From the NCBI GenBank assembly GCA_963770495.1, contig CAVYQA010000030.1:201701-265700 (forward strand): DNA of 64,000 nt. Direction: 5' to 3'. Numbering within the stretch: position 1 is the stretch's first letter; the number at the start of each line of letters is the position of its first letter. This DNA comes from Chitinophagales bacterium (GTDB lineage: Bacteria; Bacteroidota; Bacteroidia; Chitinophagales; CAVYQA01). The position numbers and the translations under genes were made by a program. Under the pieces are notes generated by a model, which did not search any database, was not told where the DNA came from, and worked only from the letters and a program-made list of their open reading frames with translations. Positions 13,668 to 36,057 of the stretch are shown here, piece after piece.

Positions 13668-13880
13668 ATTTCAAAGAACTTTATTCAAAACAAAATTACA
13701 CCTGATACTAAAGCGGTGAGAAAAGTTGGGACAGAAAGTTTCTTACTTGGTTAGATAATATATATAATTTATATAACTACCTGCTTTCAGGTAGAGAAAG
13801 CCATACTTGTTTTGGTGTAATAAAAAACACTACCTGTTTTCTTGTATTTTTCAAAATACCTATTTATGGTCTTGCGAAGG
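13668..13880 (+). repeat. Copy A of a two-copy intergenic repeat (core 13766-13880), with hairpin CTACCTG-cttt-CAGGTAG
   Basis: Aligned by eye to 27405-27693. Shared blocks are atttcaaagaac, gaaaagttgggaca, and a ~115-nt core with about nine differences. Confidence 0.7.
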
Positions 13881-17100: not shown

Positions 17101-18239
17101 GTAATATTGGCTTAGCCTACATTAGCGATAACGTAGCTATCGGCTATCAGGCGCTTTATACAACTGACCCAACAACTGCTTCTGGTGGCGTAGCAACAAA
17201 TGGCAACTTAAATACAGCAATTGGAGATTATGCTGGTTATAACAACACTTATGGTTATGAAAATACATTTTTAGGCGCTCAAACAGGTGGTACCCTCCAA
17301 ACTTCAGCTTTTGATGATACTTATGTTGGATATAATGCGGTTATGCCAGGTACACCTTATACACTTGCTTATGGTGCAATGGTTCTTGGTGATATGAATC
17401 TTCAAGAGGTTTATTCGTATGCGCCGTATATGCAGTTTTCAGATGGTCGCTTTAAGAAGAATATACGCCAGGATGTATCGGGGCTTGCATTTATAAATCA
17501 ATTAACTCCTATTAGTTATACACTTGATATAAATGGATTGTATAATATGATAGAGCCGGATTATAAACGTTCTGCGCAAGATGAACAAGCATCAGAAGCT
17601 AAAGAACAAATCCGTCAAAATGGTTTTATTGCACAGGATGTAGAAAAAGCGGCTCAAAAAGTAGGGTATGATTTCAGCGGTGTTGAAGTTCCAAGTGATC
17701 CATCCAAAGAGCTTTATGGGCTTTCTTACTCAACATTTGTTGTGCCATTGGTAAAAGCTGTTCAGGAATTATCAGCAAAAAGTGATGCTAAAGATTCAAC
17801 TATTGCCCAACAGCAACAACAACTTAATGCACAGGCGCAGCAAATTTCGAACCAGCAATCGCAACTTGACCAGTTAAGTGCAATGGTGTCAAAATTAGAT
17901 ATTGCATTGTCACAATGTTGTACTAATTACCAGTCAACAACAACCGGCTCATCGCAAACAAGTTCAGGAAATAACGATGCGCCATTGTTAAATCAAAATA
18001 TTCCCAATCCATTCTCACAAAATACAATTATAAGTTGTTATGTGCCTTCTTCAGCGAAAGGAGCAACAATAAGTATTTTCGATTTGAACGGGCAAATATT
18101 AAAATCATTCACTATGCCGACAACCGGGTTTAATCAAATAACCATTACGGGCGGCACCTTAGCAGCAGGTGATTACTTATACACCCTGTTTGTTGACGGA
18201 CAAAAAATTGACACTAAGAAGATGACATTAACACATTAA
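14166..18239 (+). CDS. Giant T9SS-secreted repeat protein: head-like repeats, S74-type tail-fibre chaperone module, coiled coil and T9SS C-terminal sorting domain
   Basis: Signal peptide MKTKIILLTVILCSFMLPLVSYGQ. Dozens of N-x-A-x-G-Y-x-AL repeats. Two '..PQWV..GAWY(L)TGN..GTNF(I/L)GTTDDN.LMF.V...GRIED' modules. FSDGRFKKNI..GFIAQDVEKA..LSYSTFVVPLVKAVQEL resembles the intramolecular-chaperone/peptidase S74 signature. This is followed by a Q-rich coiled coil and a C-terminal NIPNPFSQNT...LYTLFVDGQKIDTKKMTL T9SS type-A-like domain. Confidence 0.85.
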   Translation: MKTKIILLTVILCSFMLPLVSYGQTFDGTGAGVGNVGLGCSGFGTYVLGGEAGTYINAGDFNVGVGEYSLYTNEYGYDNTAVGEVALFTNQYGTDNTAIGYAALNNAEAYYNTAIGSMSLYSNTGGTNNTAVGYASLYNNLYGTGNTAVGVVALNLNTDGIVNVAVGFGALQINGSGSWNDAVGAEALSTNSSGSYNDAFGYGALDANTVSYNDAFGYESLYKNSDGTENVGMGYQALWSNVSGSKNVAVGSTALYNGTGSDNTGVGNAADWADVSGKENTMVGSYAGGSNTSDYNTFVGFSAGYQTGYTQSGQSNSFFGTNAGFGNTRGSNNCEFGAGVGGSNATGSDNVLVGYQAGYNTNSDGNTFVGWYAGYDNLPLHGGGTYNTTLGYGSDIEYRGLTNATAIGSWAYVANSNTIVLGSDGLISGSSAVTQLDFNGALAPNYGGGYNPGAAGQYLQSQGAGAAPQWVNASAISGAWYTNGNASTVYGTNFIGTTDDNCLMFEVNSTLAGRIEDGSCSLSTSIGYEAMGSTSSGYNNAFGAYALHGNTHSSSYNDAFGYLAMDINTFATDNEAMGYEALNNNQHGSYNVAIGATALANNSGGGNNNEAIGFAALTSNDAGSNNVALGYQALTASTASNNDAVGYQALTANTTGTPNDAFGYDALYNNQTGDDNVAMGYQAGYSTDAGDNTFIGYNAGMTNGGGGNENTCLGSGADVSSTGFTEATAIGYDARVTSSYTILLGDNNVTQLEFNGALEPWDGSGYDPGTAGYFLESLGPSTPPQWVAPPSGLSGAWYLTGNTGTTYGTNFLGTTDDNNLMFQVDGTVSGRIEDATFSNSSNTSLGYGALTDVGAGGNTAIGYEAGASQSRGAQYNDAFGYEALMSNNHGTYNDAFGYQALNTNENFGSYNEAIGYQALYDNSGGGKYNIAIGASTLSASNYSASYNIAIEDQALNNNIYAFQNTAIGYQALYSMDDPSNIGLAYISDNVAIGYQALYTTDPTTASGGVATNGNLNTAIGDYAGYNNTYGYENTFLGAQTGGTLQTSAFDDTYVGYNAVMPGTPYTLAYGAMVLGDMNLQEVYSYAPYMQFSDGRFKKNIRQDVSGLAFINQLTPISYTLDINGLYNMIEPDYKRSAQDEQASEAKEQIRQNGFIAQDVEKAAQKVGYDFSGVEVPSDPSKELYGLSYSTFVVPLVKAVQELSAKSDAKDSTIAQQQQQLNAQAQQISNQQSQLDQLSAMVSKLDIALSQCCTNYQSTTTGSSQTSSGNNDAPLLNQNIPNPFSQNTIISCYVPSSAKGATISIFDLNGQILKSFTMPTTGFNQITITGGTLAAGDYLYTLFVDGQKIDTKKMTLTH

Positions 18240-18350
18240 CACTAATCTCACTCGCTCACGCACCCCTCATTTTTTGGAGTGGGGTGCGGGGATGAGGCAA
18301 ACAGAGGTAAAATTTGTACCTTTATATTGCTACTTTATATATTTAACATT

Positions 18351-20696
18351 ATGAAAAGCCCTTTCCTGTTTACTATATTCCTTTTTGTTATTGTGGAATC
18401 ATTATGCCATGCCCAAAATCCTTTATTATGGGGAATGACAAGTGCAGGTGGAGTTAGTCATATAGGTACAATTTTCAATTATGATGTCAACGCAGCCACT
18501 GAAACTGATAATCATGATTTTGCCGGCGGACCTAATGACGGATGGGGACCTGGTGGCGATTTGCTTAAGGCAAATAACGGTTTGCTTTATGGGTTAACTC
18601 AATCTGGTGGAGACAATTCTAATCAAGGCACAATTTTCAGTTATAATATCAGTACAGGTACAGAAACCGTTTTACACAATTTTGGCAGTGATACTGATGG
18701 TGCAGATCCTCGTGGCTCCCTTATCCAGGCAAATGATGATTTGCTATATGGGATGACCAATAGTGGCGGAAGTTATGGACACGGCATACTTTTTAGTTAC
18801 AATATTTTAACAGGAGTAGAAACCGATTTACATGATTTTGGTAATGGCACTGATGGAACAAACCCAGAAGGTTCTCCCATCCAGGCGAGTAATGGTTTAA
18901 TATATGGTGTGGTTGGAACGGGTGGGGCGAATGGCGGTGGAATACTATATAGTTATAATATCTCAACAGGTATTTATACTAAACTATATGATTTTGGCAA
19001 TGGAATGAATGTATATGATCCACAAGGTTCGCTGGTACAGTTAAGTGATGGGCTACTTTATGGAATAAGTGTAGGAGGCGGGACTAATGGTGGTTACGGT
19101 ACTATATTTAGTTATAATATAATAACGGGTAAGGATACCGTTTTGCATAGTTTTGGCAGTGGTACAGACGGAACTTTTCCTCTACACGATAAGCTCTTAC
19201 AAGCGAGTGATAGCTTATTGTATGGAATGACTCAAAGTGGTGGGGTTTACAGTAGAGGTATAATTTTTAATTATAATATTACTTCAGGTATAGAAACCGA
19301 TGTACACGATTTTGGTAGCGATACTGACGGGAAGCAGCCTTTTGCCTCACTCATCCAGGCAAGTAATGGTTTACTGTATGGAATGACAAGTTTAGGTGGT
19401 GCAAATAGTAATGGTATAATTTTCAATTACAACATTACAACAGGCATAGAAACCGATATACATGATTTTGGCAATGGAACAGATGGAAAAACCCCTGATG
19501 GCAGTCTTACTGAGGTAGATACCATAGGCGTAACACCAATAATAGCTTCTATTTGCACTGGCGGCAGCGTTACCCTTAAAGCCAGCGGCGCAACAACTTA
19601 CACATGGAGCCCGGCAACAGGGTTAAGCGCTACAACAGGAGATAGTGTAATTGCAACTCCAACAGTAACCATCACTTATACTGTAATTGGCATAATAGGC
19701 ACAGCGGGCACATCTTATGCCCAAACAGATTCAACTACGGTAACCGTTACGGTAAATATGCCGCCAACAATTACGGTAAATACCCCATCACCTATTTGCA
19801 ATGGCGGCAACGCAACACTTATAGCCAACGGCGGCAGCACCTACACCTGGTCGCCCTCAACAGCACTTAATGCCACAACGGGAGATAGTGTTATTGCCAG
19901 TCCAACGGCAACAACCATTTACACGGTTACAGGAGATTCATTAGGTTGCACGGCAACAGCAACAGATACGGTTAAAGTTATTACCGCGCCACCTTTGCCC
20001 ATTGTACCGGCTTCGGCATTTCTTTGCCTCGGGCAAAGTGATACGCTTTTCGCGCAGGGCACAGGAAATAATTTTACCTGGAGCCCTTCTTCAGGTTTAA
20101 GTGCCACAACAGGCAGCAGTGTAATTGCTACCCCAACAGTAACAACAACCTACTCCGTAACAGGACCGGATTCACTAGGCTGCACGGCAACGGGCACGGT
20201 GGTGGTAACCATCTTCCCTTCTCCTAATCAACCCTCTTTCATTCAAAGCGGAGACACACTTATTTCAAGTTCACAACATGATAACCAATGGTATTACAAT
20301 GGCGCCCCGCTAAACAACGATACCAGCCAACGCCTCATCATTACCGTGCCGGGCGAATACTGGGTAGTTGTCAACAACGAGGCAAACGGTTGCAGCACAG
20401 CATCGGATTCTATGAAGGTGGATACAGTGACAGGGATTGAGCAGTTGACAGTGAACAGTGGACAGTTGACAATTTACCCTAACCCCACATCAGGGCAATT
20501 CACTATAAAATTAAATGATAACCAAAATGGTTACACTGTGGAGGTTTATAATGTAATGGGTGAAAAGGTTTATCAATCAGTTTTAAATAATTCGCAAAAC
20601 GATATTGACCTGTCATCACAATCTACGGGGATGTATTTTGTTTATTTGAAATCGGCTGAGGGCGTGGAGGTTGGGAAAGTGCTGGTGACAAAATAA
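18351..20696 (+). CDS. T9SS-secreted protein with GloVer-type tandem repeats and Ig-like repeats
   Basis: About eight repeats of ..GTIFSYN..TG.ET.LH.FG...DG..P.GSL.QA.DGLLYGMT..GG... About four repeats of TWSP..GLSATTGDSVIATPT.TTTYTVTG. The C-terminal TIYPNPTSGQFTI...MYFVYLKS..G..VGKVLV is a sorting domain. The likely start is the ATG at 18351 (MKSPFLFTIFLF). Confidence 0.8.
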   Translation: MKSPFLFTIFLFVIVESLCHAQNPLLWGMTSAGGVSHIGTIFNYDVNAATETDNHDFAGGPNDGWGPGGDLLKANNGLLYGLTQSGGDNSNQGTIFSYNISTGTETVLHNFGSDTDGADPRGSLIQANDDLLYGMTNSGGSYGHGILFSYNILTGVETDLHDFGNGTDGTNPEGSPIQASNGLIYGVVGTGGANGGGILYSYNISTGIYTKLYDFGNGMNVYDPQGSLVQLSDGLLYGISVGGGTNGGYGTIFSYNIITGKDTVLHSFGSGTDGTFPLHDKLLQASDSLLYGMTQSGGVYSRGIIFNYNITSGIETDVHDFGSDTDGKQPFASLIQASNGLLYGMTSLGGANSNGIIFNYNITTGIETDIHDFGNGTDGKTPDGSLTEVDTIGVTPIIASICTGGSVTLKASGATTYTWSPATGLSATTGDSVIATPTVTITYTVIGIIGTAGTSYAQTDSTTVTVTVNMPPTITVNTPSPICNGGNATLIANGGSTYTWSPSTALNATTGDSVIASPTATTIYTVTGDSLGCTATATDTVKVITAPPLPIVPASAFLCLGQSDTLFAQGTGNNFTWSPSSGLSATTGSSVIATPTVTTTYSVTGPDSLGCTATGTVVVTIFPSPNQPSFIQSGDTLISSSQHDNQWYYNGAPLNNDTSQRLIITVPGEYWVVVNNEANGCSTASDSMKVDTVTGIEQLTVNSGQLTIYPNPTSGQFTIKLNDNQNGYTVEVYNVMGEKVYQSVLNNSQNDIDLSSQSTGMYFVYLKSAEGVEVGKVLVTK

Positions 20697-25957: not shown

Positions 25958-27184
25958 ATGAATCAATTCGACACAGGTATTACCGGCTTTATGCTGTTGG
26001 CAACAAGCCTTGTTATGTTAATGACACCGGGACTCGCATTTTTCTATGGCGGTTTGGCTGGCAAGAGAAACATCCTGGGTATAATGATGCAGAGTTTTGT
26101 TTCCATGGGCATCACTACTATTCTTTGGTTTTTTGTAGGCTATTCGCTTTGTTTCAGTGGCGGCGAAGGGGGTATAATAGGTAACCTCGATAAAGCTATG
26201 ATGAATGGAGTTACGTTAAACTCCGCTTTCTCTGGTAATCCTAAATTACCCGAGTTTGTTTTTATAGCTTATCAAATGATGTTCGCTATTATCACACCGG
26301 CGCTTATTACCGGAGCCTTCATGAACCGTGTAACATTTAAAGCCTATCTTATTTTTCTTGTTTTGTGGCAGTTGCTGGTATATTATCCTTTCGTGCACAT
26401 GATATGGGGAGGCGGGTTACTGGCACAGTGGGGTGTGCTCGACTTTGCAGGTGGAATAGTTGTCCATGCTATTGCGGGTTTTGCGGCACTGGCTTCAGTT
26501 ATATATGTGGGCAAACGCCGGAACACTGAAAGCAAACCCAACAGTGTGCCATTAATTGCATTAGGCACGGGTTTGCTGTGGTTTGGCTGGTATGGGTTTA
26601 ATGCCGGAAGCTCATTAAATGTGAATGCCATCACCGGGCTTGCTTTTTTAAACACCGATGTTGCTGCATCATTTGCAGCTATTACCTGGCTGGTGATTGA
26701 ATGGAGTCTTGTAAAAAAACCAAAATTTATTGGCTTACTCACCGGCGCTGTTGCTGGTTTAGCCACCATAACACCGGCAGCAGGTTATGTGTCATTGCCT
26801 GCCGCTGTTATGATAGGCACCGCTTCAGGAATAGTGTGTTACATAGCTGTACACTTTAAAAATAAAATGGGTTGGGATGATGCCCTGGATGTATGGGGTG
26901 TTCATGGCGTAGGCGGAGTGCTTGGCATTATATCACTCGGTGTTTTTGCAGCTACCGATGTCAATCCCGGCGGGGCGCAGGGCTTGCTCACCGGTGAAAC
27001 ACATTTCTTTTTCATAGAAGTTGCCTCCGCTCTTGGCGCCGCAGTTTATGCCTTCATCTTCACCTATGTAATGCTTGCCCTAATTAATTTGGTTACTAAG
27101 GTGCGTGTAACAGAAGCTGTTGAAGATACCGGTCTTGACCAGGCTATTCATGGCGAAATGGCTTATGATGAGGGAGTGTTGTGA
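25958..27184 (+). CDS. amt: Ammonium transporter (Amt family)
   Basis: About eleven TM helices. Conserved LDFAGGIVVHAIAG and WGVHGVGG motifs. Confidence 0.9.
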   Translation: MNQFDTGITGFMLLATSLVMLMTPGLAFFYGGLAGKRNILGIMMQSFVSMGITTILWFFVGYSLCFSGGEGGIIGNLDKAMMNGVTLNSAFSGNPKLPEFVFIAYQMMFAIITPALITGAFMNRVTFKAYLIFLVLWQLLVYYPFVHMIWGGGLLAQWGVLDFAGGIVVHAIAGFAALASVIYVGKRRNTESKPNSVPLIALGTGLLWFGWYGFNAGSSLNVNAITGLAFLNTDVAASFAAITWLVIEWSLVKKPKFIGLLTGAVAGLATITPAAGYVSLPAAVMIGTASGIVCYIAVHFKNKMGWDDALDVWGVHGVGGVLGIISLGVFAATDVNPGGAQGLLTGETHFFFIEVASALGAAVYAFIFTYVMLALINLVTKVRVTEAVEDTGLDQAIHGEMAYDEGVL

Positions 27185-27404
27185 GTAACTTAAAAGTTAA
27201 AACTCAAAAGTTAAAAGTGGGCTTGTGAGTTTAGAGTTTTTTAAAATGACAAGAACCGTTTAAGAACCTGTCTTTTTATTTTTTGTTTATTGTCATTCAA
27301 TAAGTTGCAGAGACTCGTCAGGTTGTTTTGCCACAACGTTGTTGTCATTTTCTTGTCGTTTTTGTTGTCATTTTAAAATGTGAACCAAATAGCAGTGCCT
27401 CCAA

Positions 27405-27693
27405 AATTTCAAAGAACGAATTAATCAGTGATCAATTATCAGTGATCAATAATTAATTGTCAAAATTAATGTTTGAAACAATTTGATAAGAAAAGTTGGG
27501 ACAACAATGTTTGGGTTTCGGTTTGGGTGTGGTGGATGTGTGATATTAAAAATAGTTTGACCGCTGATTAGATACAATAATTTATATAACTACCTGTTTT
27601 CAGGTAGAGATAGCCATCCCTGTTTTGGTGTAATGAAAAACACTACCTGTTTCTTGGTATTTTTCAAAATACCTGTTTATGGTCTTGCGGAAG
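27405..27693 (+). repeat. Copy B of the two-copy intergenic repeat (core 27579-27693), abutting the left hairpin repeat of the first Y1 element
   Basis: Same blocks as 13668-13880. The core carries three TACCTGTTTnnnGGT(A/C) palindromic motifs. Confidence 0.7.
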
Positions 27694-27709
27694 ACTATGT
27701 GTTAACCCC

Positions 27710-28500
27710 GTCGTCGCCGTGTCTCCTTTTTGGCGCTGCCTTAAGCCTAAGCAGGGACACGGTAGTTTGTAGGCGCAACAACACATTTCATTTTCGTTTT
27801 GTACTTATAAGACTCAATGATTCCACATCTTTATAATGGGTTATTACAGTAATTTCGAAATCCAAACCTTCATAATATCTTGCCGAACTATCAACATAAT
27901 CGGTAAAACAAGATACTAACTGCCATTTCTTACTTACCGGGTTCGAATGAACATAATTCAGCTTCTGTAGCAAGAAATCCAACGTCAATATTATTTTTCC
28001 GTCAAAAGATGACTTAAAAACCTGGTGCTTTTTGCCTCTCTTCTTATCAGACGGCGTCACTTCCTTTTCCAGTATTTTTAAAATGGTATTTAGCTTTTTT
28101 TCTTTTAACCTTTCTACTATTTCATACGCCATAAAACGTTTACCATTGGATACCCAACGCTTAATGTCATATTTATTTTCTCTGAAATTTATAATCACAT
28201 GAACATGGTTGGGCATTATAACATAAGCAATGATCTGGTGATTATTTTTTCTTAAAACATTAAACCATTTATAAACTACATCATATGAATCTGTCATCTG
28301 AAAAAGAGAAAGCCAATTGCAACACGTGAACGTGATAAAATACAATCCATTCTTATCCTCTCTGTTTACCTTAACGGACATTCATATCGCTTTAATTCAC
28401 AAAATAAAAAAGATTCAGCTAATTTTAAGCTTAGATAATTCATTCCACCGTGTCCCTGCTTAGGCTTAAGGCAGCGCCAAAAAGGAGACACGGCGACGAC
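27710..28500. mobile_element. REPtron-like unit: a Y1/HUH transposase gene bracketed by perfect 54-bp inverted repeats
   Basis: 27710-27763 is the exact reverse complement of 28447-28500, checked base by base (54/54). Each arm contains an internal CCGTGTC...GACACGG stem. Confidence 0.8.
27788..28381 (-). CDS. REP-associated tyrosine (Y1, HUH) transposase-like protein
   Basis: ..GLYFITFTCCNWLSLF.. N-terminus, HUH motif IMPNHVHVI, and C-terminal YVHSNPVSKKWQL...YVDSSARYY, typical of the IS200/RAYT superfamily. Confidence 0.75.
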   Translation of the reverse strand: MSVKVNREDKNGLYFITFTCCNWLSLFQMTDSYDVVYKWFNVLRKNNHQIIAYVIMPNHVHVIINFRENKYDIKRWVSNGKRFMAYEIVERLKEKKLNTILKILEKEVTPSDKKRGKKHQVFKSSFDGKIILTLDFLLQKLNYVHSNPVSKKWQLVSCFTDYVDSSARYYEGLDFEITVITHYKDVESLSLISTKRK

Positions 28501-28948
28501 AGAATGAGAAAAAAAACATTCTCGTCACAAATATCTCTTTGGTTGAATCAAAGGGTGATAATGGCTTTACAGATTTGTTATGGCAAGCAACTTATATAGA
28601 TAGCAAGGGTCAAACTCAAACTACAACACAGTCAACAGGAGTTTCTTACAAATCAGTAGGAAAATACAATAAAAATGTTACAAAAAGAGTATTAGATTCC
28701 CTCAAAAAAACCAAATAATGAAATTGACAATCATACCGTTCAAAAAAATAAACGCAACTATATACATGACACACCTTGCGCCCCCACTTATTTTTTTGGC
28801 ATACATTTTGAAAAGATTTACCCTCATTCATTATGTACTACAACCGAAAACAATATCAAAAAACGGTTTAACACGCTCCAAAGAACGTGAGGCAATAGGT
28901 CTGCCATTTCAGTATAAATTTTCAATTAATTATTAAGAACAAATTTTT

Positions 28949-29932
28949 ATGGACTCAAAGAGTACAAAGTTTAACAGCATTTTAGATGTGTTAAAGAACT
29001 TTCCTGATGAAAAGTCTTGCAGGGAATATTTAGAGCGTTTACGTTGGCACGATGGTAAAATCGTTTGTCAGAAGTGCGGAAGTAATGATAAGATTTACAA
29101 GATACGTGACGGCAAACTTTATAAGTGTGCTAAGTGCCGTAAGCAGTTTACAGTTAGGTTGGGAACAATCTTTGAAGATAGCGCATTGCCTTTACAGACG
29201 TGGTTTATGGCATTGTTTCTTATTACAGCTCACAAGAAAGGCATAAGTAGTTTACAGTTGAGCCGTGACCTTTCTATCACCCAGAAAAGCGCATGGTTTG
29301 TGTTGCATAGAATACGTTATGCCGTTAAAACTAAGTCATTCAATAAGCCACTTGAAGGCATTGTGCAAATTGACGAAACTTACGTAGGCGGTCGAGGTCA
29401 AAACAAGCATCAAAGCCGTTGGGCTAAACGAACAAATGATACCGATTTAAGCCATTACCTAAGACCAACAGCAGGGCGCAGTACATTAACAAAAGCACCT
29501 GTTTTGGGTATCGTTGCTCAAGATGGTGACTTTGTGGGGTATTGTGTACCCGATGTTACAGGCAAAACCATTAAGCCGTTAATTCAAAAGCACGTTAAAG
29601 AGGGTTCTACTATTGTAACCGATGAATTTAGAATTTACCCTGCAATAACTAAAGAGTATTTACACCAAACTGTTAAGCACCGTTTAGGTGAATACGTTAG
29701 AGATGGTTATCACACTAATACAATAGAGGGCTTTTGGTCGTGGCTAAAGAGGTCAATATTTGGCATCTATCATCAAGTATCAAAAGAACATTTACAGGCG
29801 TATGTAGATGAGTGCGCCTACAAATACAACACTCGTAAAATAACCGATGTGGAACGATTTAATAAAACTCTGTCTTTACTTGACGGTAAATTAACTTATA
29901 AAGATTTAATAAAAAGGGGGGCAGAGAAATGA
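28949..29932 (+). CDS. IS1595-family DDE transposase (apparently intact)
   Basis: N-terminal Zn ribbon CQKCGS..YKCAKCRKQFTVRLGTIFEDS. DDE-type triad candidates VQIDETYVGG, IVTDEFRIY and HTNTIEGFWSWLKR. The stop overlaps the next start (ATGA at 29929-29932). Confidence 0.8.
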   Translation: MDSKSTKFNSILDVLKNFPDEKSCREYLERLRWHDGKIVCQKCGSNDKIYKIRDGKLYKCAKCRKQFTVRLGTIFEDSALPLQTWFMALFLITAHKKGISSLQLSRDLSITQKSAWFVLHRIRYAVKTKSFNKPLEGIVQIDETYVGGRGQNKHQSRWAKRTNDTDLSHYLRPTAGRSTLTKAPVLGIVAQDGDFVGYCVPDVTGKTIKPLIQKHVKEGSTIVTDEFRIYPAITKEYLHQTVKHRLGEYVRDGYHTNTIEGFWSWLKRSIFGIYHQVSKEHLQAYVDECAYKYNTRKITDVERFNKTLSLLDGKLTYKDLIKRGAEK

Positions 29933-30993
29933 GAAAGGAAATAAAAAATATATCTATATTTAATTCTAAATACGGAATACCGTTTACTATGGACAGAGTA
30001 GATTATCAATCAATGGTTATTCAGGATATAATAACATTGAACAAAAAAGGGGAATTAAATAAAACTCCTTGGTATCAAAGAAGGTCAGTTTGGAATACCC
30101 CTCAACAATCTTATTTGATAAATACCCTTTTGGAAAGAAAACCAATACCCGCAATTTATATTCGCTATTCTCTTGACCTTGAAAAGGGCGTAACAATAAA
30201 AGAGGTTGTAGATGGACAACAACGAGTAACTGCAATAATTGATTATATTGATAATGATAAATTTACCTCTTTTCATCCCGATTTAAAAAAGCGAGTAAAG
30301 TTTTCAAAATTATCCCCTATTCAACGAGAGAGATTTTTATTGACGGCTATCCCTGTGGGCTATTTGTTAGGAGCAAATGACGCAGATGTTATTGATATTT
30401 TTGCCCGTATTAATTCGGTTGCTAAAACCCTCAATAAGCAGGAAAAAAGAAATGCCTTATATAGCGGAGAATTTAAACAATTTGCTGTAAATGAATCTAC
30501 AAAGAGAGTAGAATTTTGGAAAGATTATCAAATATTTACCGGTAATAGTATCGCAAGAATGGATGAAGTACAATTTATTTCAGATGTTACTATTAATTTC
30601 ATAGAGGGCATTATAGCCTTTAATCAATCTAAAATTGATAAATATTATAAAGAGAATGAAGATGCGTTTGCAGAAAGTGAGGATATTTCAAAAAGATTTA
30701 ATAAAATTTTTGACGTTTTATTATCGTTAAATCCTAACACAATTAAACAAACTATATTTTTTAGGCAACCAATATTCTTTTCATTAATGCTTGTAATTGA
30801 CAGGATTAAAAAACCAAATATAAATATTATTCAAAAGGGACTTACAGAAATAGATAATAGATTTAATAGTGATGTTCCACTTGATAAAAGAACAAAGGAT
30901 GATTTAAATTTTTATAATGCCTGTTCGGCTACCACTCAATCATCTGAAAATAGAAAAACAAGAGATAAATATATAAGTAAATTTATTGAATAG
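29929..30993 (+). CDS. DUF262 (ParB/Srx-like NTPase/nuclease) domain protein without a DUF1524/HNH module
   Basis: TPWYQRRSVWNTPQQSYLINTLLERKPIPAIYI and VVDGQQRVTAIIDYI (DGQQR signature), then FARINSVAKTLNKQEKRNALY. At 354 aa there is no C-terminal His-Me nuclease motif visible. Confidence 0.75.
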   Translation: MRKEIKNISIFNSKYGIPFTMDRVDYQSMVIQDIITLNKKGELNKTPWYQRRSVWNTPQQSYLINTLLERKPIPAIYIRYSLDLEKGVTIKEVVDGQQRVTAIIDYIDNDKFTSFHPDLKKRVKFSKLSPIQRERFLLTAIPVGYLLGANDADVIDIFARINSVAKTLNKQEKRNALYSGEFKQFAVNESTKRVEFWKDYQIFTGNSIARMDEVQFISDVTINFIEGIIAFNQSKIDKYYKENEDAFAESEDISKRFNKIFDVLLSLNPNTIKQTIFFRQPIFFSLMLVIDRIKKPNINIIQKGLTEIDNRFNSDVPLDKRTKDDLNFYNACSATTQSSENRKTRDKYISKFIE

Positions 30994-31613
30994 TGCCGTC
31001 TGTAAATATTAATACCACTCACAAAAGAGGTATTGTAGATATTGGAAATTTAACTAATTATATTACTGATTCAGTAACATTAGAAGCCAAATATCAGTAT
31101 ATGATTGGCGAAGTAGTTATGCTAAGATTGTTTGGAATTTTAGAACATTCTATTGCTGAAATTGCCCTTAAATTAGCATGTGGTTGTAATTATAGAAACG
31201 GTAAAAATCCATTGGTTAAAAAACAATGTCGTAGCATGAGGGATGCTTTTTCTAATATGCTTGTATATAATAGAAGGAAACCAAAAAATCCAATGGATTT
31301 AAAGTGGACAAAGGCAAACTTGATAAAGGAAAGTATAGAACATGTATTAGATACTAATGATAGTTTTTATAATCAAATTCAAATTCATAATGCGGTAATT
31401 GATGAAATGAGAAGGATACGGAATCATGTTGCACATCGCTCTAATGGCACAAAAAAAGAATTTATTAGTATCCAGCAAAATATATATAACGGCAAAGTGG
31501 GTTTAACTATGGGGGCTTTTTTAGTATCTACTTCTCGTCACGCCACCTCAAACATTCAAAGATATATAGGAACTACAACTATTATTTTAAATGATATAAC
31601 AAGCGGAATATGA
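30993..31613 (+). CDS. Hypothetical protein with an Rx4H (HEPN-like) motif
   Basis: ..EMRRIRNHVAHRSNG.. contains R-N-x-x-A-H in an all-helical-looking context. The GTG start overlaps the DUF262 stop (TAGTG at 30991-30995). The start codon is uncertain. Confidence 0.4.
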   Translation: MPSVNINTTHKRGIVDIGNLTNYITDSVTLEAKYQYMIGEVVMLRLFGILEHSIAEIALKLACGCNYRNGKNPLVKKQCRSMRDAFSNMLVYNRRKPKNPMDLKWTKANLIKESIEHVLDTNDSFYNQIQIHNAVIDEMRRIRNHVAHRSNGTKKEFISIQQNIYNGKVGLTMGAFLVSTSRHATSNIQRYIGTTTIILNDITSGI

Positions 31614-31744
31614 AAGAAGAACAAAGGAAAAAGAAAACTAAATCAAAGCGACAACGGAACGAAAAGCCATTAAAGGTAGATATGCCTTTTGAGGAATTAA
31701 TGAGCCGGATAGTAAGAGTTAAACCAAAACATAAAAATCCTTAA
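31610..31744 (+). CDS. 44-aa highly basic micro-ORF (not in the ORF track)
   Basis: My own translation gives MKEEQRKKKTKSKRQRNEKPLKVDMPFEELMSRIVRVKPKHKNP. Its ATG overlaps the upstream stop (ATGA at 31610-31613). Its stop lies 2 nt before the next ATG (31747). Confidence 0.4.
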   Translation: MKEEQRKKKTKSKRQRNEKPLKVDMPFEELMSRIVRVKPKHKNP

Positions 31745-31746
31745 CT

Positions 31747-32205
31747 ATGATAAAATATTTGAAATCACACTCCCAAATCATACTTGCAATACTTTCCCCC
31801 TTATCCACAATCATTTTTGGATTAATGGCTGAGTGGGATAAAATCACTAACTCAAAGGTTCTATCATTTCATAATGTTTTCACTTACTTGTTTTGGATAG
31901 GCATTGTTTGGACAATAATCTATGTTCAGAACTTGTTTTTTCAGGGTGTTAATCTTAAAAAGCTAAAAAAAGAAATTGATGCGGATAATGCTTACAAATT
32001 TGCTGAATTGAGAAAGGACATAAATTTAGAATTTAGGTATATGCGCCTTTTATCTCGTATGAATAGTGGATTAGAATGGCATCACGATAGTATGGTAACA
32101 AGTCGCAATATGAATTTTGATAATAATTATACGGCAGATGAAAAAATATTTTTAAGAGATTATAGACAAAGATTTAATCAAGTTTATGGACACGGTAATT
32201 ATTAA
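31747..32205 (+). CDS. Small 2-TM membrane protein with a helical cytoplasmic tail
   Basis: Two hydrophobic helices (IILAILSPLSTIIFGLMA; FTYLFWIGIVWTIIYV) followed by a charged ~85-aa tail. It is the last cistron of the coupled cassette. Confidence 0.5.
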   Translation: MIKYLKSHSQIILAILSPLSTIIFGLMAEWDKITNSKVLSFHNVFTYLFWIGIVWTIIYVQNLFFQGVNLKKLKKEIDADNAYKFAELRKDINLEFRYMRLLSRMNSGLEWHHDSMVTSRNMNFDNNYTADEKIFLRDYRQRFNQVYGHGNY

Positions 32206-32397
32206 GGCGTTCTTTGAATGATTAAAAATTAAAAAATGGCTACAAATTTGACAGGCAGATATTTATTTCGTGGGTGTGTCAAGTGAGTAGTTCCCAAAAT
32301 AAAATTAATCTCGACTTTAAGTAAGCAACAATTAAAGGAAATATTAAATGATTTTATTCAATCAGGAGATATAAGTAAAAATTATTGGTTTAGGAAC

Positions 32398-32787
32398 ATG
32401 AATATAAAGAAAAAGTATATTGGTGAAGTATATAACAATGAGTTTATAATAGAGCCTCCTGTTAATTTTTTTTATTCACCTGCCTTTCAGGTCCAAGGAG
32501 AAATTTTGGAGAATAAAAGTTCTATTTTTGTGAATTTAAAATTTAAATTACCGTCTCGGTTTGCAATTGTATTATTATTGGGTTTTCTTGCTTGTTCTAT
32601 TATTATCCCATTTATTTATCATTTATTTCAGGATGATACAATAAATAGTAGATTCCTACCCCTATTAATTATGATTCCATTCCTTGCTTACTTCGTGACG
32701 ATAATATCATTTAATGTTGAATTGAATTTGTTTATCAAACGATTTAGTAATGTTCAGCCGTGGCAGGTGTTCTGGGTTGAAAATTGA
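32398..32787 (+). CDS. Hypothetical 2-TM protein whose 3' end is encoded by a REP hairpin
   Basis: Hydrophobic segments FAIVLLLGFLACSIIIPFIY and LPLLIMIPFLAYFVTIISF. The last ~11 codons (..QPWQVFWVEN) lie inside the repeat at 32753-32803. Confidence 0.4.
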   Translation: MNIKKKYIGEVYNNEFIIEPPVNFFYSPAFQVQGEILENKSSIFVNLKFKLPSRFAIVLLLGFLACSIIIPFIYHLFQDDTINSRFLPLLIMIPFLAYFVTIISFNVELNLFIKRFSNVQPWQVFWVEN

Positions 32788-33441
32788 AAAGCCCACCTGC
32801 CACTGAAGTGCAGGTAAATAATGCGCTTTTTATATTTGTGCATGGAACCGGATAAACTTTATTTCTTTACTGCTACCATATTAGAATGGAAACCGTTATT
32901 GAAAGAAGATATCTTTAAGGATATAGTAATGGATAGCTTAAAGTTTTTAGTAAAGGAGAAAAGAATATTGCTGAGAGCATTTGTAATAATGCCCAATCAC
33001 ATACACCTGATGTGGAACATACTCACACCTAATAAACCATCAGATGTTCAGCGTGATTTTCTGAAATATACTTCGCAGCAGATAATTACAATACTGAAAA
33101 ACCGTAATGATGGTTATTGGCTTAATCAACTAAAAGTAAAAGCTGTTGATCGCCGCTACCAGGTTTGGGAACGCCGGCCGTTGGCAATAGAATTATATAC
33201 TCCTGACGTTAAATTCCAAAAATTAAAGTATATTCACCATAATCCTGTGCAGGAAAAATGGCAATTATGTAAGCTGCCTGAAGAGTATAAATATAGTTCA
33301 GCGGAGTTTTATTATTTGGAGAAACAGGAAGGGGATTTTATAACTCATTATTTGGAATATGGAATGTAGAAAGTATATGGCTCGGCTGCGGTGGCAGGTG
33401 GGCTTAGCTTTTTCCTTTGCTGAACACCTGCCACGGCTGAA
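32753..33441. mobile_element. Second REPtron-like unit: a Y1 transposase gene between two inverted REP hairpins
   Basis: The outer arm TTCAGCCGTGGCAGGTGTTC (32753-32772) is the reverse complement of 33422-33441 (20/20). The inner arm AAGCCCACCTGCCAC (32789-32803) is the reverse complement of 33391-33405 (15/15). Each side folds as GTGGCAGGTG / CACCTGCCAC. Confidence 0.75.
32821..33369 (+). CDS. REP-associated tyrosine (Y1, HUH) transposase-like protein, second type
   Basis: ..KLYFFTATILEWKPLL.., HUH motif IMPNHIHLMW, and YIHHNPVQEKWQL..YKYSSAEFYY. The start may be the internal ATG at 32842. Confidence 0.75.
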   Translation: MRFLYLCMEPDKLYFFTATILEWKPLLKEDIFKDIVMDSLKFLVKEKRILLRAFVIMPNHIHLMWNILTPNKPSDVQRDFLKYTSQQIITILKNRNDGYWLNQLKVKAVDRRYQVWERRPLAIELYTPDVKFQKLKYIHHNPVQEKWQLCKLPEEYKYSSAEFYYLEKQEGDFITHYLEYGM

Positions 33442-33715
33442 GTTTCTGCACTATTTCATAAGCCATAAATCGTTTTCCATTACTTACATATTGATTAATG
33501 CTTTTAGCGGTGTTGGCAATATGAATAAGCGCATGAACATGATTAGGCATAATTACAAAAGCGGCAATATTATTTCCGTCGCGTTTTAACGCATCAAACC
33601 AGTTGAATACAGATTGATAAGCATTTGCAATTTCAAATAGCGAAATCCATTTATGACAGGTTATAGAAATAAAATATATCCCTTCACCCTTTTCAATTTT
33701 TCTTCTGACAGTCAT
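33404..33715 (-). pseudogene. Truncated paralogue of the 27788..28381 Y1 transposase
   Basis: It aligns with the full-length copy over GIYFISITCHKWISLF..IMPNHVHALI..SNGKRFMAYEIVQKL. It then diverges into REP-encoded QPWQVFSKGKS and stops at 103 aa, against 197 aa for the full copy. Confidence 0.7.
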
Positions 33716-33965
33716 AAATCACACGAAATAATATTGCAAATTAATTATTTTCATGAAGTAAAAACGCAAAGTCCCTAAAAAGGAGACTTTGCGGGAACGG
33801 AAGGATAAGGCGATGGTGTACCGCCTGATTGATTCTATCGTCACCAAAAAAAAGTTTAAGGATTTCTTCGCCCAAAATATGGCGGCGCAATAACTTTTAG
33901 TGTGGAGTGCGGACACTCCACACGGCGGGGTAGTGATAATCTGGAACACTACCGAACTCTCCACC

Positions 33966-35090
33966 TTATTTCAGTATTTCATATTTATAATAATAATAGA
34001 AACAACTATTATCACCAAGCTTAGAACTGCCTTTACAATCACTTACTTCCGTTAATAGATTTTTTTTGTACCAATACATTCTATTGTCAAACGTATCAAT
34101 ACCGTTGTTGTCGAGGCTATAATGTTGATAAGTATGTCCGACTAATTTATGATCAGTATTATAATCGTATTGATCTTGAATGGCTATTTTACCATCATCA
34201 TAATACCACATCCTTGCATATTCAGTTAGATAATCATTTATATATTCTTGCTTATCCGGGTCGATGTATCCATGTAAATATTCAAAATATTCATCCGATA
34301 TCTTTCTTCCTAATGAATTATATTCACTAATATATTTGTAATAAAATTCAGGAGAACTGGGCAGTTCGAGTATTTTTCCGACTGTGTCTGTGAATTTATT
34401 AATGCTTCCATCACTTGCCGTATCCCATCGCTCACTAAACTTTAAGGAATCATATTTACAATATTCTTTTATAAAGCTGCCTTTAAGTTTCTTTGTAATA
34501 ATTAAATAATCATTTAGATGGAACGAATCTATTCTAATAATTCTATTTGGGTTTCCTGAAATTATAGTATCCTGATCCAATAGTTTTCCAGTGCTGCTAT
34601 AATACTTGAATAAATATGTTACCCAATTATAATCTTCAGATATTTTTTCGGGTTTTAAAACTACATTTACATCTCCACCGGTATACTGTCCAAATTTCGG
34701 TCCCAAATAATCACCTTTCAAATCGTATTTTAAAACTTCGCCATTATTAGTCTTAAACATCCTTGGATAATAAGTAACATAAATAGATTGTATCGTTTTA
34801 TCCTTGTTGTAAGAAAAAGTTAATTCCTTATCAATTGAATCATGGTTAGTAATATCAATACCCTGTATATCATTATAGAGAAAACCATTCATATATATTT
34901 GTTGACGAACAGGCATCAAATGATTGGTGTCACTTCCACAGAGCGTAGTTACCTGAATTTTATTAAATTTGATTAAATCCGAATCGCAATAATTAAATTG
35001 CAGATTCAAAAATGAATCATACTTAAATTGGGCGCATACTAATTTGGGAGATAATAATAGTAAAGCGGCAAAAGCAATTATTTTATTCAT
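33966..35090 (-). CDS. Secreted hypothetical protein downstream of the RHS toxin tip (possible immunity or accessory protein)
   Basis: Signal peptide MNKIIAFAALLLLSPKLVCAQ from the ATG at 35090, which lies 8 nt after the upstream stop. No recognisable motif. Confidence 0.5.
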   Translation of the reverse strand: MNKIIAFAALLLLSPKLVCAQFKYDSFLNLQFNYCDSDLIKFNKIQVTTLCGSDTNHLMPVRQQIYMNGFLYNDIQGIDITNHDSIDKELTFSYNKDKTIQSIYVTYYPRMFKTNNGEVLKYDLKGDYLGPKFGQYTGGDVNVVLKPEKISEDYNWVTYLFKYYSSTGKLLDQDTIISGNPNRIIRIDSFHLNDYLIITKKLKGSFIKEYCKYDSLKFSERWDTASDGSINKFTDTVGKILELPSSPEFYYKYISEYNSLGRKISDEYFEYLHGYIDPDKQEYINDYLTEYARMWYYDDGKIAIQDQYDYNTDHKLVGHTYQHYSLDNNGIDTFDNRMYWYKKNLLTEVSDCKGSSKLGDNSCFYYYYKYEILK

Positions 35091-35098
35091 ACATATAA

Positions 35099-36057
35099 TC
35101 AAGGATTATTTGTAGGGGGCAACTGTTGAGGAATAAATGTACCTGTTTTTGTTGTTTCCTGTATTGGCATAACCGAACCTCCAGTACCTTGAGTTTTTAT
35201 AATTAAACTCGGCGGTAGCTTGTTTGTACCTATTTGTACAGGCGCTGCTCCCTTGCCGGGGGCAGGAAGATTATTAGAGGCAGGTACAACCAAATCATTT
35301 CTCATGCCCGCAGGATTTGGAGTTGCTCCGTTAAATACGATAAAAGGTTTACCGTTAATACCCTCATAATAAGCAAAATTTCTGTGCACTATACCGCCCA
35401 ATTGATTAATTCCACCAGTTATACCTTGCAGTGCTTCTTGTTTTGTAATTAATTTTCTGTTTGTGGGGTCAACACCATTATAATCATTTTGATACATAGG
35501 ATCATAAAATCTTGGTGTATTTGCCCTATTTACAACTTCATTTTTCTGCTCATCATTTAAACTATTCCAGGCACCTGTTTTTTGTCTAGTTGCACTAAAA
35601 GAAACGTTTCCTTGATCATTTATTGTGTAAAAATTGTCCTGATTATCATGGGTTCTAACTATTGCAAGTAAATTTCCCTGAGCATCTCTATAAAAATTAT
35701 CAAGTGCCCCTTTCCATTTGGGTCAATTTTTCTTATTGGGTCATCCAATACAAAAACGTAGGAACTCCAACCTGGATATTTCCGAAAATCTGGATCAACA
35801 GATTTAAAAATATTTAATCTTGAATCATAAATTCTCGCTCCAAAGTCTAAAATATTCCCGTTGCCTTCAATATCATTATCCTTATATTTTCCGTTGAAAC
35901 CAAAATGGTAACTTGTGTCATCAGACAGAGAGAAATTCCTACCGGGTTCAAGCATACCGCCCGTATAGTAATCCTGCGTAGCGTAACCCTTATCCCAATT
36001 GATTTTCACTGGATTCATGGGTAGTAAAAATATGTCAAAAATGGCAGTTTTATGCAA
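35099..36057 (-). pseudogene. Orphan RHS repeat-associated core and C-terminal toxin tip, split by a 1-nt frameshift
   Basis: ..YYTGGMLEPGRNF..YHFGFNGKYKDNDIEG..LDFGARIYDSRLNIFKSVDP..DPNGK is the RHS-core signature. Switching to the -1 frame between 35662 and 35722 continues as ..GALDNFYRDAQGNLL... into ORF 35099..35497. No RHS shell lies upstream. Confidence 0.65.

Follow-up and report, generated by a model that had tools for sequence, protein, structure and literature searches.

Systems that pair a gene for a REP-associated tyrosine transposase (RAYT) with repetitive extragenic palindromic (REP) hairpins are as a rule described as occurring in single copy, with vertical inheritance and a stable position. 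In Pseudomonas fluorescens SBW25, Bertels and Rainey reportedly found in 2011 several RAYT paralogues in one genome, each with its own REP family, and inverted REP doublets (REPINs) are said to be the likely mobile unit. The present analysis concerns a 64-kb stretch of a Chitinophagales bacterium contig (CAVYQA010000030.1, positions 201,701 to 265,700; “the window,” in whose positions all coordinates are given), which holds three REPtrons, i.e., RAYT genes with flanking REP hairpins, inside 6 kb, the third being a remnant. Its main subject is the second of them (REPtron 2, 32753-33441), at whose outer edge the third RAYT gene is cut. The locus clearly exemplifies an element type already known and is no new kind of system; in it, one RAYT gene has been destroyed at the REP edge of another family, and two genes have come to use REP sequence for their C-terminal codons and stop. 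It bears on how REPs spread and on what RAYTs do to the surrounding genome.

Comparison with described RAYT/REP systems

The family relationship, the REPtron layout, and the presence of several RAYT/REP pairs per genome have already been described (PMC2817692, PMC6006769). Specific to the window are the three units in 6 kb, the RAYT gene cut exactly at a foreign REP foot, and the REP-made C termini; a three-unit cluster with one member cut at another's REP edge was not found in the published RAYT/REP descriptions that were compared. A gene flanked by two inverted copies of one palindromic repeat is the arrangement described for RAYTs (Nunvar 2010, PMC2817692), and both REPtron 1 and REPtron 2 show it.

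In its sequence motifs, the product of REPtron 2 (RAYT2) resembles subclass 2.6 of Quentin et al. (2018), which is RAYT group 5 of Bertels et al. (2017; PMC5581495) and comprises REPtrons of Bacteroidetes. Members of this subclass, mostly from Bacteroidetes, have ∼179 amino acids (aa), an NH[LIV]H motif, a YIH[QN]NP motif, a HuH-to-Y distance of ∼82 aa, and a C-terminal SS motif; the gene is flanked by hairpins of which copies occur elsewhere, and there are ∼1.8 gene copies per genome (PMC6006769). RAYT2 likewise lies between hairpins in a Bacteroidota host (the window encodes a T9SS sorting domain) and has 175 to 182 aa, NHIH, YIHHNP, a HUH-to-Y distance of 75 aa, and YSS at residues 158-160 downstream. 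It differs in having H in the tyrosine motif where the subclass consensus is Q or N. A second difference concerns the repeats: the hairpins of subclass 2.6 have been described as “atypical, weak” and lacking GT[AG]G, whereas REP2, the hairpin of REPtron 2, has a strong, conserved 10-bp stem starting with GTGG. In REP2 these are the first four stem bases, behind a conserved TTC(C/A)GCC foot, while REP1 and REP3, the hairpins of the other two units, have a CGTC or CGTT foot instead of GT[AG]G.

The REPtron of Escherichia coli, with inverted flanking REPs around TnpA_REP (PDB 4ER8; RAYT group 2), provides the best structural and profile match to RAYT2, and its enzyme cuts and rejoins REP single strands beside the hairpin (PMC8266576). 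The two proteins nevertheless share only 16% identity, and the REPs of E. coli, with a bulge in the stem and an unpaired GTAG foot, exist in hundreds of copies, in contrast to the two copies of REP2 in 64 kb. The window resembles the REPIN-RAYT systems of SBW25 in its coresident RAYT/REP pairs and in the inverted doublets of related contigs (L124, L125, and L131) but belongs to another RAYT group and phylum, and the doublets of its relatives still hold a RAYT 3' tail. IS200/IS605 elements (IS608 and ISDra2) have in common with the window the HUH-Y1 fold and hairpin-guided cleavage of single-stranded DNA, and they form the second tier of structural matches; their different tyrosine motif, distinct left and right ends, and identical multicopy elements are not seen here.

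REPtron 2: a putative RAYT between inverted hairpins

REPtron 2 is a compact unit in which two 56-nucleotide (nt) arms, the left REP2 hairpin (32753-32808, plus strand) and the right REP2 hairpin (33386-33441, minus strand, inverted relative to the left copy and with its outer edge at 33441), surround an open reading frame (ORF) at 32821-33369. The arms are inverted copies, 79% complementary overall. An earlier note on this DNA had described them as inverted hairpin repeats with matching outer and inner parts and dissimilar spacers, and all of this was borne out: the outer 20 nt (TTCAGCCGTGGCAGGTGTTC) are identical at 20/20 positions, the inner 15 nt (AAGCCCACCTGCCAC) at 15/15, and the 16-nt spacers are unlike each other. 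Each arm forms its own hairpin, GTGGCAGGTG-N24-CACCTGCCAC, with a 10-bp stem that is preceded on the outer side by the foot TTCAGCC, and DNA folding gave −12.5 to −14.5 kcal/mol, with z scores of −3.2 to −3.5 against shuffled sequences. The exact stem 10-mer occurs four times in 64 kb, always inside the left or right REP2 hairpin; allowing one mismatch raises the count to 10, where 1.8 would be expected, and none of 100 shuffles attained it. Rfam returned no match for 27000-35000, so the hairpins are not a described RNA family. The lone half-site (CTGGCAGGTG) to which the earlier note had pointed does exist at ∼13976; it was rejected as a REP remnant, having no partner arm and being consistent with chance.

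The ORF at 32821-33369 (plus strand; 182 aa, or ∼175 aa if translation starts at the ATG at 32842, as in homologues) encodes RAYT2, an intact HUH/Y1 endonuclease. The HUH motif is N59-H-I-H62, and the putative catalytic tyrosine is Y137, in KLKYIHHNPV; across 23 aligned homologues, N59, H60, and H62 never vary and Y137 hardly does. There are 1,628 homologues, mostly proteins of 171 to 175 aa from Bacteroidota and from metagenomes, and the name RayT is given to them by several sources. RAYT2 scores 23.2 bits against Pfam Y1_Tnp, just over the gathering score of 23, and matches the NCBIfam model REP_Tyr_transpos (NF047646) with an E value of 1e-20 (74.0 bits), compared to 4e-3 for the IS200 model (NF033573). 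A phmmer search of PDB with the RAYT2 sequence gave no meaningful match, while the best match of a profile of the RAYT2 family was 4ER8 (E = 1e-4), IS200-type proteins having E values of at least 0.04. The AlphaFold (AF2) model of RAYT2 has a pLDDT of 89.7, and Foldseek placed 4ER8 at the top (E = 1e-8; TM scores, 0.62/0.68), followed by IS200/IS605 TnpA. From its sequence and modeled structure, RAYT2 is predicted to be a RAYT (TnpA_REP), an HUH-Y1 endonuclease of single-stranded DNA.

That the units of the window are instead ordinary IS200/IS605 insertion sequences, autonomous and multicopy, is very improbable, and this alternative is largely refuted. The weakness of the Pfam Y1_Tnp matches and the presence in some relatives of more than one RAYT2-like gene or fragment would suit it, but REP_Tyr_transpos scores far above IS200, 4ER8 is best by both profile and structure, and the tyrosine motif is YIHHNP, of the RAYT type, rather than Y[IV]ENQ. 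Further, the ends are a single hairpin in inverted orientation rather than separate left and right subterminal hairpins that share an orientation, REP2 is dispersed without the gene, and the three RAYT genes of the window are paralogues at 31 to 47% identity, not copies.

By analogy with E. coli TnpA_REP and IS608, RAYT2, which we infer to be active, would bind the REP2 hairpin on single-stranded DNA, cut beside the hairpin foot with formation of a 5'-phosphotyrosine link via Y137, and rejoin the end to another 3'-OH; such cutting and rejoining would disperse copies of REPs and REP doublets.

REP2 as a dispersed family in related contigs

Since the 64 kb of the window contain no REP2 besides the two flanking copies, evidence that REP2 is a family had to come from elsewhere, and copies were sought in related contigs (designated by L numbers). 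The bare core palindrome proved too generic as a probe: a scan of genome contigs for GTGGCAGGTG-N18-30-CACCTGCCAC gave at least 112 loci, with no RAYT2 homologue nearby among the matches listed, most of which were (GGCAGGT/GGCAAGT)n-type repeats from taxa such as Chloroflexota and Actinomycetota. In JGI metagenomes, a specific pattern found 26 contigs, to which protein look-ups added eight; these 34 contigs contain 50 REP2 sites in 29 sequence variants, many of them with no RAYT within the contig. From outer to inner side, all 29 variants consist of a T-rich run, the foot TTCCGCC (TTCAGCC in the window), the stem GTGGCAGGTG, TTC, a variable loop of ∼14 nt, AGCC, the stem CACCTGCCAC, and the tail CGCAGCCGAGCC. 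The stem has 9 to 10 bp and is itself conserved in sequence, so no covariation can be counted. The layout of a hairpin-flanked RAYT2 recurs in L116, L117, and L142, inverted REP2 doublets 140 to 250 nt apart occur in L124, L125, and L131 (some holding remnants of the RAYT2 3' end), and L145 has three copies in direct orientation; in the window, there are no doublets besides the REPtrons. In these relatives, the REP2 hairpin is a genuine dispersed REP family. Well-formed, sequence-conserved REPs are thereby documented for a little-studied group of Bacteroidetes RAYTs and provide candidate substrates for biochemistry.

In L124, L125, and the L113 group, the last 45 to 65 nt of the RAYT2 gene adjoin REP2. 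Such copies, with a RAYT2 3' tail, are found at 80-373 of L124 and 561-854 of L125, and L113 (2714-2832 and 3882-4203) has REP2 beside the RAYT2 end, as do L122, L126, L127, L132, and L135 to L137, the part of the gene being either the last 45 to 65 nt or 81 codons. By their sequence, these doublets and singlets look like internally deleted REPtrons or multiplied modules of RAYT tail plus REP. In L113, these modules alternate with REP1-like and REP3 copies and with tandem paralogous genes of ∼240 aa. The closest available RAYT2 (95% aa identity; L115) lies in an unrelated context, is 5' truncated, and has a single REP.

Botryobacter ruber (L072 and L076) has two copies of a long palindrome, GCAGCGG..GTGGCAGGTGCAG..CTGCACCTGCCAC..CCGCTGC, which contains the REP2 core stem and may be a related REP family. 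Members of its family, Hymenobacteraceae, carry RAYT homologues ∼55% identical to RAYT2; a tblastn search for a RAYT beside the B. ruber palindromes was negative.

Reading frames that end in REP2

A 103-aa ORF at 33404-33715 (minus strand) adjoins REPtron 2 on the right. Only 33437-33715 derives from a Y1 gene (RAYT3, or Y1-3), and the remainder is encoded by REP2. The fragment comprises codons 1 to 93 and includes the HUH motif, NHVH; the region of the catalytic tyrosine is gone, so the product cannot be a functional nuclease. It scores 21.8 bits against Pfam Y1_Tnp, just under the gathering score, and also matches REP_Tyr_transpos. The C terminus, ..IVQKLQPWQVFSKGKS*, has its tail inside the right REP2 hairpin, which supplies the final 10 to 11 codons and the stop; the earlier note had likewise traced the end of this ORF to the right repeat. 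The closest orthologues are 86% identical over residues 1 to 93 and then continue for ∼100 more codons that include the catalytic tyrosine motif. A relative with the same 103-aa ORF free of the repeat, which according to the earlier note would make the truncation ancestral, was not found; the closest orthologues run on past residue 93, and the truncation is therefore derived. The absence of the missing C-terminal half, noted before for the other side of the unit, extends to the whole window, where tblastn with a full-length orthologue found only 33715-33437 and the two paralogues.

Upstream of the fragment, at 33765-33803 (minus strand), is a hairpin that the earlier note had missed, REP3 (H3), consisting of CGCAAAGTCTCC-TTTTT-AGGGACTTTGCG with a CCGTTCC foot. 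The related contigs L118 and L119 contain the complete REPtron 3, in which a hairpin CGCAAAGTCTCC-TTTTT-AGGGACTTTGCG (with a CCGTC foot) is followed by a gene of ∼192 codons and by the hairpin in inverted orientation. By comparison with these contigs, the 103-aa ORF is evidently the 5' half of a third REPtron, of which the window keeps the 5' hairpin and codons 1 to 93. REP3 is terminator-like and lies downstream of the ORF at 33966-35102, but a role as an intrinsic terminator only was rejected because in relatives the complete Y1-3 has this hairpin on either side and further copies are dispersed. A perfect 10-bp hairpin at 33900-33923 (GTGTGGAGTG-CGGA-CACTCCACAC), between the end of ORF 33966-35102 and REP3, is unrelated to REP1, REP2, and REP3.

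Other copies of the gene are also damaged. The Y1-3 of L118 has a TGG-to-TAG nonsense codon at 757-759, past the tyrosine motif, and other orthologues (proteins P0136 to P0139 and P0150) are each damaged differently, with divergent or short C termini; the RAYT3 lineage appears, from these sequences, to be decaying repeatedly. A similarity seen in the alignment between the REP-encoded WQVF and the RAYT motif (H/Y)QV(F/W) was treated as coincidence.

On the left side, REPtron 2 is preceded by a membrane protein gene (32287-32787, plus strand; called as ORF 32398-32787, 129 aa). Its C terminus, ..QPWQVFWVEN*, had been attributed to the left REP2 in the earlier note, and 32753-32787, within that hairpin, indeed encodes its last 10 codons and stop. 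Because REP2 adjoins coding DNA on both sides, both interrupted frames enter a hairpin and stop there: each reads the outer arm in one frame and terminates in the loop, and the two share the QPWQVF tail since they run into the same outer arm. A homologue search with the upstream ORF returned only itself. Its only recognizable homologue is a 175-aa protein of L116, which ends in ..NRFKEYFG* 18 nt before REP2; the homology stops at ..KRFS in the window. At the other end, homology to the L116 protein reaches ∼27 codons upstream of the ATG, to ∼32317, where there is no canonical start codon, and on this comparison the gene is probably damaged at its 5' end too.

Origin of the junction

The rearrangement junction lies at 33442-33443, where codon 91-93 of Y1-3 directly adjoins the outer foot of REP2; on the minus strand it reads ..GAAATAGTGCAGAAAC|TTCAGCCGTGG. 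Because the REPtron 2 block that the window shares with L116 ends at 33441, and homology to L118 and L119 (86% nucleotide identity) covers only 33443-33800, the breakpoint coincides with the outer foot of the right REP2 to within 1 to 2 nt. There is no target site signature, and microhomology amounts to at most 1 to 2 nt. It is hardly conceivable that the contig was misjoined at a short repeat. The window does come from a metagenome-assembled contig, and REPs are repeats, but an independent Logan contig (L147; run ERR12036785) is 100% identical over 33339-34296, spanning the end of RAYT2, the right REP2, and the truncated gene, so the junction is not a binning or scaffolding artifact; in addition, the left and right REP2 are not alike in loop and inner flank, and their length of 56 nt is below that of the reads.

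The order in L118 is the Y1-3 gene, its 3' REP3 hairpin, a gene for 205 aa, REP2 with its outer edge facing these, and the RAYT2 3' end. The REP2 outer edge is ∼1.08 kb beyond nt 573 of Y1-3, in convergent orientation as in the window, from which this ∼1.08 kb between the units is missing. At the opposite end of REPtron 2, the ORF that immediately precedes the left REP2 in L116 and L117 is homologous (31% identity) to the upstream ORF of the window. These arrangements suggest an ancestor in which REPtron 2 and REPtron 3 were convergent and ∼1 kb apart, as they still are in L118. A deletion of ∼1.1 kb, with one end exactly at the outer foot of the right REP2 and the other in codon 91-93 of Y1-3, would have eliminated the 205-aa gene together with the RAYT3 3' half and 3' hairpin, and this one deletion would turn an L118-like, L116-like ancestor into the arrangement of the window. 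To such a REP-anchored deletion between neighboring units, as the whole explanation for REPtron 2 and the third-REPtron remnant, we give a probability of about 0.6, and we regard it as more likely than the insertion of REPtron 2 into a gene. The earlier note had argued for insertion or recombination at a REP accompanied by a deletion, rather than a simple insertion, and this conclusion stands: homology stops at 33443, beside the REP edge at 33441, and ∼1.08 kb is missing. Both the direction in which the event ran and the role of RAYT2 as the enzyme that cut at the REP edge are inferred.

Several observations weigh against this explanation. RAYT2, with 74.0 bits, falls short of the curated cutoff of NF047646 (80 bits), as does RAYT1 (71.6 bits); the model was probably built mainly from proteobacterial RAYTs. 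The 64-kb window contains only two REP2 copies. L118 is fairly distant (77 to 86% nucleotide identity), so its arrangement need not be ancestral to that of the window. One contig, L146, joins the 3' part of Y1-3, ∼11 nt off the breakpoint, to the outer edge of a left-type REP2. Finally, the evidence does not separate a cut by RAYT from replication slippage stimulated by the hairpin.

L146 (JGI Ga0302186_10011615) contains, at 1-260, the 3' part of Y1-3 in antisense, a left-type REP2 outer foot, and the first 10 codons of RAYT2, followed by DNA that in L142 is found past the other end of REPtron 2, here inverted. It could have originated by insertion, as a duplication or circle junction, or as a chimeric contig.

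The L146 junction bears on a different history, in which REPtron 2, or a REP2-bounded segment, was inserted as a unit into RAYT3 near codon 92-96 and the 3' half, on the far side, was lost later by deletion or rearrangement, with the result that the membrane protein ORF came to lie against the left REP. With Y1-3 from nt 585 onward set against a left-type REP2 foot and then 10 RAYT2 codons, L146 has the reciprocal junction, only 11 to 13 nt from that of the window and in the polarity expected for the far side of one insertion. In its favor, too, REPtron 1 and REPtron 2 recur in several relatives as REP-to-REP blocks whose flanks are unrelated, and the REPIN-like doublets of L124 and L125 keep a RAYT2 3' tail, as would be expected if REP-bounded units moved. 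Such a history would nevertheless take two or more events on the lineage of the window, the junctions fall on different nucleotides, with ∼11 nt unaccounted for, and L146 is itself rearranged past codon 10 of RAYT2 and could be a duplication junction or a chimera. The left flank of REPtron 2, with its homologous ORF, is common to the window and L116, which suggests that the unit stayed put. We consider insertion followed by loss unlikely.

The break may also have been made by the host, with RAYT2 uninvolved, through replication stalling at the REP palindrome or through slipped-strand or illegitimate recombination promoted by it. It is known that deletions and duplications can end at palindromes and REPs. 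The stability of the REP2 hairpins (−12.5 to −14.5 kcal/mol) and a junction with no target site signature and little microhomology agree with such a process. Against it, in a suggestive way only, the break is at the outer foot TTCAGCC, neither inside nor symmetric around the stem, and the REP3 break in L118 and L121 (see below) is exactly between stem and foot, a position like that of a Y1 cut. A purely host-made break is possible, if rather improbable.

REP edges as breakpoints

The deletion proposed for the window would not be the only rearrangement at a REP edge in these bacteria. L118 (883-920), L119 (1155-1193), and L121 (∼1000) are 100% identical up to the REP3 hairpin and then diverge, the point of divergence being the junction of the REP3 stem and foot (..CTTTGC|GGGAACGG); sequence comparison indicates that near-identical strains differ structurally at a REP edge. 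For REPtron 1 and REPtron 2, too, the homology blocks stop at the outer edges of their REPs. Taken together, the alignments indicate that REP boundaries are recurrent breakpoints in this clade, and the locus provides a nucleotide-resolved case, backed by several related contigs, of REP edges as structural breakpoints. In characterized systems, the sites at which TnpA_REP cuts single-stranded DNA are dinucleotides immediately outside the hairpin, selected with help from the foot tetranucleotide (PMC8266576), and because these enzymes cut beside hairpins, breaks made by a RAYT are a natural candidate.

A bolder interpretation, based on L146 and on the blockwise conservation, is that REP-bounded segments (whole REPtrons and deleted derivatives with a RAYT tail) move or recombine as units and that RAYT lineages inactivate each other; we regard it as doubtful. 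If it were true, RAYT cuts at REP feet would lead to insertions, adjacent deletions, and duplications, and the REPtrons of this clade would not be immobile domesticated genes. The junctions of the window and of L146 would then have arisen on either side when one RAYT/REP lineage inserted into a rival's transposase gene and inactivated it, a case of direct competition between coresident REP-RAYT systems.

REPtron 1 and the three RAYT/REP families

REPtron 1 (27710-28500, minus strand) consists of perfect 54-nt inverted REP1 copies (27710-27763 and 28447-28500) around the gene for RAYT1 (27788-28381, minus strand), an intact paralogue of 197 aa that is 47% identical to the truncated 103-aa ORF. 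RAYT1 and RAYT2 share ∼31% identity, and REP1 and REP2 are unlike in sequence. The earlier note had recognized two distinct RAYT/REP pairs; the distinctness of REPtron 2 from the unit at 27710-28500 stands, since both the REPs and the RAYTs differ, but the families number three. REP1 and REP3 are related, with a common core (TCTCC-TTTTT...AGGGA plus a CGTC/CGTT foot) and different stems, a kinship that matches the paralogy of RAYT1 and RAYT3. Copies of both occur in relatives, frequently beside REP2.

In L148 (448-1242; JGI Ga0665309_00914228), REPtron 1 is present as a REP-to-REP block with 84% nucleotide identity (27705-28502 in the window) and rearranged flanks. A segment ∼480 nt from it (L148 1724-1815) is homologous to window 33804-33895, which adjoins the REPtron 3 remnant, 5.3 kb from REPtron 1 and in an order that is noncollinear with L148. 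By this comparison, the three REPtrons and their flanks seem to have been shuffled between lineages.

Directly to the right of REPtron 1, at 28527-28718, is the 3' part of a gene homologous to a 73-aa ORF of L116 (50% identity over 46 aa by tblastx), with no obvious intact start past REP1; REPtron 1 may lie in or against a gene end.

Other features of the window

Between REPtron 1 and REPtron 2, the region 28949-31613 (and on to 32205) encodes an IS1595-family transposase (DDE_Tnp_IS1595, E = 5e-38), followed by a GmrSD_N/NsnA-like protein (29929-30993), a RiboL-PSP-type HEPN protein (30993-31613), and two small ORFs. In L116, the 73-aa gene and the gene like the 129-aa ORF, between which this block lies in the window, are neighbors, and the block therefore looks like a mobile or defense insertion of ∼3.7 kb.

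A 113-nt direct repeat (13764-13876 and 27577-27689; 92% identical) is rich in ACCTGTTT and includes the palindrome TACCTGTTTTCAGGTA. One copy lies upstream of a gene for a 1,357-aa repeat protein, and the other ends 16 to 20 nt before the left REP1; the repeat may represent a regulatory region common to both. Repetitive coding regions of very large size extend over 1-8000 (minus strand) and 14166-20696, one of them with a periodic repeat of ∼51 nt (motifs such as GYQA) in both orientations. An 805-aa protein of the window combines GloVer tandem repeats with the type IX secretion system (T9SS) sorting domain.

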